A stretch of DNA of 64,000 nt, taken from positions 13,015-77,014 of the forward strand of contig JBPPMZ010000086.1 in assembly GCA_051306295.1 (NCBI GenBank), in the 5' to 3' direction. Below the pieces are notes generated by a model, which did no database searches, was not told the DNA's origin, and worked only from the letters and a program-made list of their open reading frames with translations. Positions 33,491-34,474 of the stretch are shown here, piece by piece (positions within the stretch are counted from its first letter, which is position 1; every line of letters begins with the position of its first letter). Made by a program: the position numbers and the translations under genes. The DNA comes from Candidatus Limnocylindrales bacterium. Lineage in GTDB: Bacteria > Chloroflexota > Limnocylindria > Limnocylindrales > CSP1-4.

Positions 33491-33691
33491 GGATTCTGAT
33501 CGGACCAGTACTTCGTGGGCAACGGGGCCGACAACAACTCGGTCGAACACTGCGCACGGACCCGGCGGGGGTGCCACTGGCGGCCGCCACGCTCAGGGAT
33601 CACCAGCCCGGACGAATGACCCGTGCGAATGCCGGGTCCCGGGCAGGTAAGACCCAGGCAAGCCGCGCTTGTTACGGTCCGATCAGAATCC
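33491..33691. repeat. 201-bp element bounded by perfect 16-bp inverted repeats
   Basis: GGATTCTGATCGGACC (33491-33506) and GGTCCGATCAGAATCC (33676-33691). Confidence 0.85.
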
Positions 33692-33718
33692 CGCCGCCTA
33701 CCGAGGCGGAGACACGGC

Positions 33719-34474
33719 ATGGCCACCAGGGTGCGACGTACGGACGACGAAGTCGCGGGACAGGTCGAGGCAACCCGGCTGGTCGCGACACTCGGCCAGC
33801 AGGTGCGCTCGGCAAGACGATCGGCCCGGGTGACCCTTCGGACGCTGGCCAAACGGGTCGGCATCAGCGCTGCGCGATTGAGTGAGATCGAGCGCGGCCT
33901 TGGCGGCGGCGCCCCCATCGCGACGTGGGTTTCCATGGGGATCGCGCTGGAGCGGCCGCTCTCGATCGCCCTGACGCGGCCCCTGCGCGAGCCGCGCGGA
34001 CCAGCCGACGCCGGCCACCTGGAGATCCAGGAGTTCGTGCTCGGCCTGGCCCACGCCAGCGGCCGGCACGGCACGTTCGAACTGTCGACCCGCCCGACGG
34101 ACCCAGCACGCTCGACGGATGTCGGGATCCGCGACCCGCGTCATCGAGTCCGGATCCTGGCCGAGTGTTGGAACACGTTCGGCGACCTCGGCGCTGGCGC
34201 CCGAGGCACCCATCGCAAGGCGGCAGAGGCGGCGGCCACCTGGCCGGACGACCGGATCGCCACGGTCTGGGTCGTCCGTGCGACAGCCGCCAACCGCCGA
34301 CTGCTCGCCCGCTACCCGCACATCCTGGCCGCGTCGTTCCCTGGCTCCAGCCGGGCCTGGGTGCGCGCCCTGGCCCGTGGCGATTGCCTACCGCCGGCCA
34401 AGCCCGGCATCGTGTGGTATGACCCCGCCACCGGCCGGCTGAGCGAACACCGCCGCGCTACCATCAGCAGGTGA
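33719..34474 (+). CDS. XRE-type HTH protein with C-terminal PD-(D/E)XK-like nuclease-fold domain
   Basis: [42 protein letters not shown] and VWVVR pattern; GGAG SD. Confidence 0.72.

Follow-up and report, generated by a model that had tools for sequence, protein, structure and literature searches.

A gene that couples an XRE-type helix-turn-helix (HTH) domain to a variant nuclease-fold domain lies, in Candidatus Limnocylindrales bacterium (Chloroflexota), between a perfect 16-bp inverted repeat and upp, the gene for uracil phosphoribosyltransferase. We analyzed this locus as part of a 64,000-nt stretch of DNA, hereafter the window, which spans positions 13,015 to 77,014 of contig JBPPMZ010000086.1 (assembly GCA_051306295.1) and in whose coordinates positions are given unless another contig is named. 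The reading that we prefer, and that we hold to be an even call, is that the locus comprises an XRE-type regulator that carries a variant nuclease-fold domain, together with its cognate, lineage-specific pair of inverted repeats. Most likely, the repeat marks the binding sites of the protein itself, rather than an RNA or a jumping element. The principal features are the following, the upp clade being those members of the protein family whose genes sit beside upp.

33491–33506, no strand: distal (left) arm of the perfect 16-bp inverted repeat
33558–33639, no strand: nested 9-bp inverted repeat (33558–33566 / 33631–33639), at chance level
33648–33665, plus strand: TAAG double box (TAAG at 33648, CAAG at 33659, 11 nt apart), by its conservation a putative family-wide promoter/operator motif
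33673–33678, plus strand: putative −10 hexamer TACGGT (TANNNT type), overlapped by the right arm; TAYGGT-like hexamers are conserved in the upp clade
33676–33691, no strand: proximal (right) arm of the 16-bp inverted repeat
33708–33711, plus strand: GGAG ribosome-binding site, read from the sequence
33719–34474, plus strand: gene for the 251-amino-acid (aa) protein, XRE HTH plus variant PD-(D/E)XK-fold domain
33791–33904, plus strand: XRE/Cro-C1 helix-turn-helix, aa 25–62 (Pfam HTH_31, E = 2.8e-7; Foldseek)
34007–34447, plus strand: modeled PD-(D/E)XK-fold domain, aa 97–243, with D134, E149, W151 in place of Lys, and K167 (model pLDDT 91; structure and profile comparison)
34471–35115, plus strand: upp, uracil phosphoribosyltransferase (Pfam UPRTase, E = 2.7e-73)

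The two arms of the outer repeat are complementary at 16 of 16 positions across a spacer of 169 nt. A preliminary description of this DNA had singled out this pair (33491/33676), a nested 9-bp pair (33558/33631), and a 251-aa open reading frame (ORF) 27 bp further on; all three lie where it had placed them, and the first and the last have held up. The 391-nt intergenic region was shuffled 200 times with its dinucleotide content preserved: no perfect inverted repeat was longer than 13 bp (a length reached in 2 of the 200 shuffles), whereas one of at least 9 nt arose in 122. Thus, the outer pair is a real signal, and the nested pair is not. The 216-nt element is present in a single copy in the 3.2-Mb genome. 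At 0–1 mismatch, the 16-mer arm has two genomic sites, which are the two arms themselves; 19 further sites at 2–3 mismatches fall inside the range obtained with shuffled patterns (7–70). Beyond its arms, the element is not a long palindrome, the self-complementarity of the whole 220-nt element scoring 33 against a shuffle maximum of 38. We also considered, and rejected, that the promoter as a whole recurs in inverted form at the distal arm: the local alignments end at 14–32 bp, with the boxes not included.

The ORF runs from an ATG at 33719 to a stop codon at 34474 on the plus strand and starts 27 nt 3′ of the right arm, with GGAG (33708–33711) located 7 nt 5′ of the ATG; its TGA overlaps the GTG start codon of upp at 34471. 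Given the ribosome-binding site before the start and the overlap of stop and start codons, the HTH–nuclease gene and upp look like one operon.

Domains and active site of the protein

The N-terminal domain belongs to the XRE/Cro-C1 group, as judged from its match to HTH_31/HTH_3 and its five-helix fold. The HTH_31 match in Pfam covers aa 25–62 with 31.2 bits (cut-off 27), and Foldseek aligned the domain with HipB, ClgR, SinR, and other XRE structures (root-mean-square deviation [rmsd] 0.8–1.6 over ~60 residues). A homodimer formed through the HTH domain is predicted with a score of 0.61 (best control 0.01), a contact agreement of at least 85%, and a predicted local distance difference test (pLDDT) value of at least 79; among solved homodimers, 20 of 30 reach the mark used for this score, and among single chains, 1 of 23 does, and the pass may stem from likeness, because XRE dimers exist among the solved structures.

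Besides the HTH, Pfam and NCBIfam searches with the 251-aa protein, and Pfam searches with 49 C-terminal domains, returned nothing; in particular, neither an HUH nor a Y1 domain was found by Pfam or NCBIfam. All PADLOC matches lie across aa 21–81 and are at the HTH level (best E = 2.2e-5, HTH_VI). Sequence and profile searches against solved structures yielded HTH matches, spurious DARPin matches, and no others, and a protein atlas search recovered only the protein's own Chloroflexota clusters. The adjoining genes include no toxin gene of a type II toxin–antitoxin system of the HipB-like kind, with couple_hipB scoring 17.9 bits against a cut-off of 71.65.

The C-terminal domain is confidently modeled with a PD-(D/E)XK fold, as the preliminary description had proposed from the motifs E...TDV...AECWN, which are indeed present in the protein downstream of the HTH. 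The AlphaFold2 model of the full protein, based on an alignment of 38 relatives, has a pLDDT of 91.6, and the domain modeled alone with 49 relatives reaches a pLDDT of 91.0 and a predicted template modeling score of 0.87. Its elements follow the order α-β-β-β-α-β of the restriction-endonuclease fold, assigned by DSSP in the models as helix 99–113, strands 117–123, 132–139, and 144–151, helix 157–174, and strand 179–187. Searching 48,161 representative chains with VIA-align, we obtained the best matches to XisH (Z 9.8, rmsd 3.3, 119 residues aligned), Upx and NucS (9.1), and AF1548 (8.8), with further matches to Can2, Card1, McrC, FokI, and Hjc; most of the top 50 are nucleases of the PD-(D/E)XK fold. 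Foldseek matched the same kinds of nuclease, weakly (best E = 6e-3). The modeled domain thus resembles XisH (2okf, 2inb), NucS/EndoMS (2vld, 5gke), AF1548 (1y88), Can2/Card1, McrC, FokI, and Hjc in its core fold, with an Asp at the start of the second strand and a Glu in the third. Unlike in these nucleases, a tryptophan stands in place of the lysine of the ExK motif, and there is no sequence-level match to a solved chain or Pfam family.

Alignment by hhalign with a canonical paralog from the same genome (contig C78; probability 95%, E = 3.4e-8) places E149-C-W151 opposite E-I-K, in agreement with the earlier remark that the motif is altered. The acidic metal ligands, an Asp in strand 2 and a Glu/Asp in strand 3, have their counterparts in D134 and E149, which align with the D and E of the canonical paralog; the catalytic Lys of (D/E)xK is lacking. 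Among 97 relatives, position 151 is occupied by W in 95, by R in one, and by a gap in one, and by K in none, and the family of C78-type paralogs has E-[IVLF]-K in 112 of 120 members. The surrounding residues are strongly conserved: D97, H100, Q104, E121, D134, E149, D156, G158, and K167 are each kept in 96 of the 97 relatives, and E105, N152, and R162 in 93, 95, and 97, respectively, with K167 (96/97) located in the helix that follows strand 3. Because the pocket residues are near-invariant, the active site appears to be altered rather than decayed.

Clade-specific repeats and a conserved promoter-like motif

The family is small and narrow, with 287 clusters at E ≤1e-10 among 1.84 billion representatives, and its named organisms carry, with few exceptions, a Limnocylindria or other Chloroflexota label. 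It is present in 17 of 35 sampled genomes of the same taxonomic family and in none of 85 from the four other families of the class. Each clade of the protein family keeps one genome site: in a quick maximum-likelihood tree of 97 members, the site label changes 21 times, compared with a mean of 59 after shuffling. The window clade sits after the gene for an ATP-binding cassette (ABC) transporter binding protein, and the order binding protein, HTH–nuclease gene, upp recurs in 12 loci; other clades are found after an aldehyde dehydrogenase, a class-III aminotransferase, clpX, a lysine-aminomutase-like, or a histidine kinase gene. The main copy of upp is 77–90% identical across the family, and the HTH–nuclease gene is absent from within 1.5 kb of all 29 other upp loci in the family. 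Thus, the gene is fixed beside upp only within its own clade.

A search within the genus for an empty site gave no clean filled/empty pair: the binding-protein gene of genome G008 ends 44 bases from a contig end, and the best binding protein of G101 shares only 56% identity, with a different gene coming after it. In the ortholog located beside upp in G089 (L011/L026; G089:C3:1829498-1830258), the gene is split into two frames with one internal TGA, either by a real frameshift or by an assembly error, and was not counted as decayed. In six other genera (L171, L172, L177, L178, L190, and L195), the binding-protein gene and upp are convergent and ~140–160 bp apart, so that, in the lineage of the window, upp is inverted relative to the transporter.

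Upstream repeats of the relatives were sought as the best long-range inverted repeat with a gap of 80–260 nt and at most one mismatch in the 360 nt around the start codon. Scores of at least 13 were obtained for 24 of 114 upstream loci and for none of 114 control stretches taken from inside genes. The gaps of these repeats measure 105–190 nt. For most clades, no more than ~15 nt lie between the start codon and the end of the proximal arm; one subclade (L005, L110, L112, and L116) has this arm just 5′ of the promoter-like boxes described below instead. Arm sequences are common within clades and different between them, both arms changing together (for example, in L002, L037, L011, L035, L111, and L113), and complementarity is kept in the same register despite the clade-specific arm sequences. 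The expectation that homologs possess upstream inverted repeats of their own, differing by protein clade, is accordingly borne out. On the points that the preliminary description had regarded as decisive, the outcome is therefore mixed: the fold is that of a nuclease and homologs have repeats, and adjacency to upp is fixed, within the upp clade alone.

That the distal arm is a functionless relic, left over from an old duplication of the promoter region or from a decayed repeat, is in our judgment quite unlikely. Many relatives have weak or no repeats, as a relic would predict, and the upstream region is a hotspot of tandem duplication; the perfect identity of arms 16–21 bp long, however, recurs in several clades with different arm sequences, and such arms would be hard to maintain without selection or ongoing conversion, given how fast the surrounding sequence diverges.

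The pattern of complementarity also bears on the proposal that the element specifies a structured RNA of ~200 nt, a leader or small RNA that the 16-bp helix would close and that would act with or on the gene. Relative to shuffled sequences, the fold of the plus strand is the more favorable (z −4.85, compared with −2.4 for the minus strand), and pairing is preserved through changes in both arms between clades. The favorable z-score, however, largely reflects the perfect repeat itself, and an Rfam scan of 33200–34600 at E up to 1 produced a single match, inside the ORF (E = 0.5; 18.7 bits against a gathering score of 47.9). Isolated arm mismatches in 29 distinct repeats comprised 3 G-T, 7 A-C, and 19 other pairs; because a helix in a plus-strand RNA should tolerate G-U and no such bias is seen, the complementarity looks to be maintained at the DNA level. 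A terminator-like hairpin separates the element from the upstream gene. In most clades, moreover, the proximal arm falls on the putative −10 and on the start codon of genes of the leaderless type, which would leave the distal arm upstream of the promoter and outside the transcript. Taken together, these observations make the RNA proposal highly improbable.

The promoter assignment derives from a motif shared by most of the family. TAAG followed 11 nt on by a second, (A/G)AAG-like box was found in 79 of 107 distinct upstream regions. In 54 of these 79, the first T precedes the start codon by 37–40 nt; in the upp clade, the distance is 65–71 nt. The boxes are followed, 7–9 nt before the ATG, by a NANNNT hexamer; in the upp clade, as read by eye, the hexamer is TAYGGT-like and precedes a ~40-nt leader with GGAG. 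From sequence conservation, we infer that double box and hexamer act as a promoter from which leaderless or near-leaderless mRNAs are made; the −10 and the transcription start site so predicted are, in the window, overlapped by the right arm. A matrix built from the boxes has 9 sites in the genome at 17.8 bits or more, compared with 2 in the shuffled genome, and 28 compared with 51 at 13 bits or more, such that only the high scorers stand out. The sites of at least 13 bits at the fixed distance from a gene start include five other XRE genes of ~200–270 aa (contigs C105, C54, C69, C78, and C9), and a sixth box site lies beside a paralog on contig C66. The analysis thereby defines a promoter-like motif, a TAAG double box at a fixed distance from starts of the leaderless type, in an uncultured class of Chloroflexota, the promoters of which have, to our knowledge, not been mapped. 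A TAAG double box is also located 38 nt before the start of a gene for a 1138-aa protein, by eye a large ATP-binding regulator (C54:64800-68213, minus strand).

Inverted repeats of 14–21 bp that bound a segment of ~110–190 bp carrying promoter boxes, with the −10 inside an arm and hence present at both ends, would also suit an invertible switch, in which the inter-arm segment flips and turns the gene off. This we find barely credible. Inner segments from related loci could be aligned in 10 pairs, all of them in the same orientation; the boxes, seen in 79 of 107 distinct upstream regions, point toward the gene with no reversed case seen; and no recombinase gene adjoins the window gene. Contigs from four DNA sequencing runs contain neither joints nor the inverted form, which weighs neither for nor against a switch, rare variants being beyond what contigs can reveal.

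Paralogs, proposed mode of action, and known systems

At least six further genes for proteins combining an XRE HTH with a PD-(D/E)XK fold were identified in the same 3.2-Mb genome.

C105:14137-14871, minus strand: XRE-HTH plus PD-(D/E)XK-fold paralog
C54:12526-13323, minus strand: XRE-HTH plus PD-(D/E)XK-fold paralog
C69:56122-56754, minus strand: XRE-HTH plus PD-(D/E)XK-fold paralog
C78:24743-25537, minus strand: XRE-HTH plus PD-(D/E)XK-fold paralog
C9:4191-4787, plus strand: XRE-HTH plus PD-(D/E)XK-fold paralog
C66, about 4186-4890, minus strand: XRE-HTH plus PD-(D/E)XK-fold paralog

Five of these have the canonical D...E-x-K and, apart from the HTH, show sub-threshold Pfam/NCBIfam matches only, to NucS, YraN, YhcG, and Mrr; the C66 paralog has E-M-Q (ExQ). 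The C78 gene is flanked on both sides by a palindromic repeat of ~165 bp (24573-24737 and 25603-25767), the two copies being 96% identical, with a self-complementarity of 71 compared with a shuffle maximum of 34. The C69 gene is likewise flanked by a palindromic repeat of ~125–137 bp (55807-55942 and 56836-56956). At least 20 further copies of the former and at least 10 of the latter lie on other contigs. Within this one genome, a small sample, the two clearest ExK genes thus have spreading repeats, and the ExW gene of the window and the ExQ gene have solitary upstream elements.

These paralogs give some indirect weight to the analogy with REPIN-RAYT systems, drawn in the preliminary description, in which doublets of repetitive extragenic palindromic (REP) sequences accompany their REP-associated tyrosine transposase (RAYT). 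As in those systems, the gene for a DNA-binding, enzyme-like protein adjoins a hairpin-forming element that is bounded by inverted repeats and tracks the protein lineage, and canonical paralogs in the same genome have dispersed repeat copies. Unlike in REPIN-RAYT, the enzyme fold is PD-(D/E)XK rather than HUH, the element is single, and the active site is altered; the window locus has neither the HUH tyrosine transposase nor the many dispersed palindromes by which REP/RAYT systems are recognized.

Could the window protein nevertheless be part of an active partnership of this or a homing kind, cutting or nicking its arms and copying or moving the element or the whole cassette? Apart from the flanking repeats of the C78 and C69 paralogs, one can point to the retention of D134, E149, E105, and K167 in 93–96 of 97 relatives, such that a relocated lysine is possible, and to the patchy distribution of the family (17 of 35 genomes) with one decayed copy. 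The element and its arms are, however, single-copy here, and the element is single-copy in two of three other genomes tested (G059 and G050); a Trp replaces the canonical Lys in 95 of 97 relatives, none of which has Lys there; and each clade occupies one genome site. As the preliminary description had stated, there is no target duplication, nor is there a second flanking copy, both flanks of the window gene matching only themselves. We conclude that active mobility of the window copy is unlikely, given the single copy, the stable synteny within the clade, and the missing lysine, and the view of this copy as a selfish element is not upheld. In the third genome, G083, a second copy of the element (75% identical, with the inverted repeat kept) precedes a gene remnant (L206; G083:C40:20500-21980). 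All that this remnant, which adjoins a contig end, retains of the gene is its first 17 codons and its last five residues.

The explanation that we consider best, with the balance of evidence standing near the midpoint, is that the repeat belongs to a cognate DNA element bound by the locus's own dimeric protein, which would autoregulate the operon with upp, and that the pair is an immobile relative of a repeat-plus-nuclease partnership such as those of the canonical ExK paralogs of the same genome. The 16-bp inverted repeat would form the ends of a single-copy element of ~200 bp that carries the gene's own promoter, with the proximal arm over the −10 and the transcription start. The dimer would recognize each arm through its HTH domains, the arms being lineage-specific cognate sites, and two dimers, or a higher oligomer assembled through the nuclease-fold domains, may bridge the arms across ~185 bp. 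Bridging would occlude the −10 and the start site and, in this way, repress or tune the gene's own transcription; the level of upp would be set along with that of the HTH–nuclease gene, by translational coupling. A sensor role, for a ligand or DNA structure, is conceivable for the nuclease-fold domain with its tryptophan and its invariant pocket of polar residues, as is some residual DNA processing.

Several observations weigh against such autoregulation. A scan with the sigma-70 consensus called no promoter, and of the sequencing runs that contain the stretch or part of it, 20 are of DNA and none is on record as RNA. Repeat scores fall below 13, with no clear repeat, in 90 of the 114 loci. 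Six loci of the upp clade combine a conserved distal arm region with a varying proximal arm, leaving only 8–11 of 11 positions complementary by eye, so that pairing as such is not always kept. The arms, at 16–21 bp, mostly non-palindromic, and often perfectly identical, exceed what an operator usually needs. Finally, 93–97 of 97 relatives share about 12 polar residues in the nuclease-fold domain; conservation of this degree suggests that the domain acts as an enzyme or binds a ligand, for which plain repression gives no explanation.

Autoregulated XRE/Cro-C1 repressors with paired operators, such as HipB and ClgR, offer a close parallel to the proposed autoregulation: the HTH fold matches, an HTH dimer is predicted, and, as in these repressors as well as restriction-modification C-proteins such as C.AhdI and the looping lambda CI, a repeated site lies over what appears to be the gene's own promoter. 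Unlike those repressors, the window protein has a fused nuclease-fold domain of ~150 aa, its candidate sites are 16–21 bp long, inverted, and ~150–190 bp apart, and there is no partner toxin or restriction gene. Fusions of an HTH to a PD-(D/E)XK domain have been listed as "predicted transcriptional regulators", namely, COG1395, which is archaeal, COG5482, and Replic_Relax (Steczkiewicz et al. 2012, PMC3424549). The window protein shares with them an HTH–nuclease-fold fusion proposed to act in transcription regulation; unlike for the window protein, no cognate repeats are described for those families in the relevant passages of that survey. None of the curated models for such fusions matches the window protein. 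A search of the literature, supplements being outside its scope, found no paper on the present XRE-PD-(D/E)XK family. The NCBIfam model NF003162 (PRK04140), which we take to stand for COG1395, does not match the window protein at E up to 1, and the paralogs match it through the HTH only, with 11.7–21.9 bits against a cut-off of 263.

A more far-reaching scenario, which we offer tentatively and regard as doubtful, is that the ExK proteins of Limnocylindria spread their own palindromic elements, bounded by inverted repeats, in a hitherto undescribed partnership, and that ExW proteins are a domesticated offshoot, having lost the Lys. The single element would have been retained as an operator, the tryptophan pocket might serve as a base or ligand sensor, and host genes would have been wired into the circuit, upp in this clade and other genes of the pyrimidine cluster in sister clades. 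If so, a repeat-spreading nuclease would have been tamed into a transcription factor while its cognate DNA element was kept. The presence in one genome of ExK proteins with dispersed repeats, an ExQ protein, and an ExW protein with a single element would then amount to a natural series, allowing direct tests of protein–DNA coevolution and of the step from mobile to regulatory DNA.

Surroundings of the locus

Upstream of the element lie ABC-transporter genes with an NMT1-type binding protein, and downstream, by Pfam, uracil phosphoribosyltransferase, the neighbors between which the preliminary description had placed the cassette. The terminator that it had assigned to the ABC operon is less certain, corresponding to a hairpin that lacks a T-run and is not called by a terminator scan, with similar hairpins found at the same position, after the binding-protein gene, in relatives. 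Two further features precede the distal arm.

33353–33383, plus strand: GC-rich terminator-like hairpin after the ABC binding-protein gene, without a T-run (inverted-repeat search, 14 nt, 93%)
33400–33478, no strand: tandem repeat with a 7-nt unit in ~10.6 copies (28-nt super-unit; repeat search)

Elsewhere in the window are an aldehyde dehydrogenase gene (11200–12720), a class-III aminotransferase gene (28084–29418), a luciferase-like monooxygenase gene (within 11200–29418), and, on the minus strand, genes for an amidohydrolase (18810–20207) and a CN-hydrolase (25336–26490). The amidohydrolase is 81% identical to a dihydropyrimidinase-like neighbor of the HTH–nuclease gene in other clades, and the sites of three clades are junctions of one such pyrimidine-breakdown-type cluster, which is also present in the window. 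Together with the ABC transporter and upp, this gene content matches pyrimidine breakdown and salvage, and the cluster is likely to serve the breakdown of pyrimidines or β-alanine.

The interval between the hairpin and the distal arm looks like a hypervariable spot of fixed position. Tandem repeats (Tandem Repeats Finder score of at least 50) occur there in 13 of 21 loci of the upp clade, with a unit that differs per lineage; these loci include L037, L108, L006, L109, L112, L117, and L107, and the interval of L108 holds 16 perfect copies of a 16-mer.

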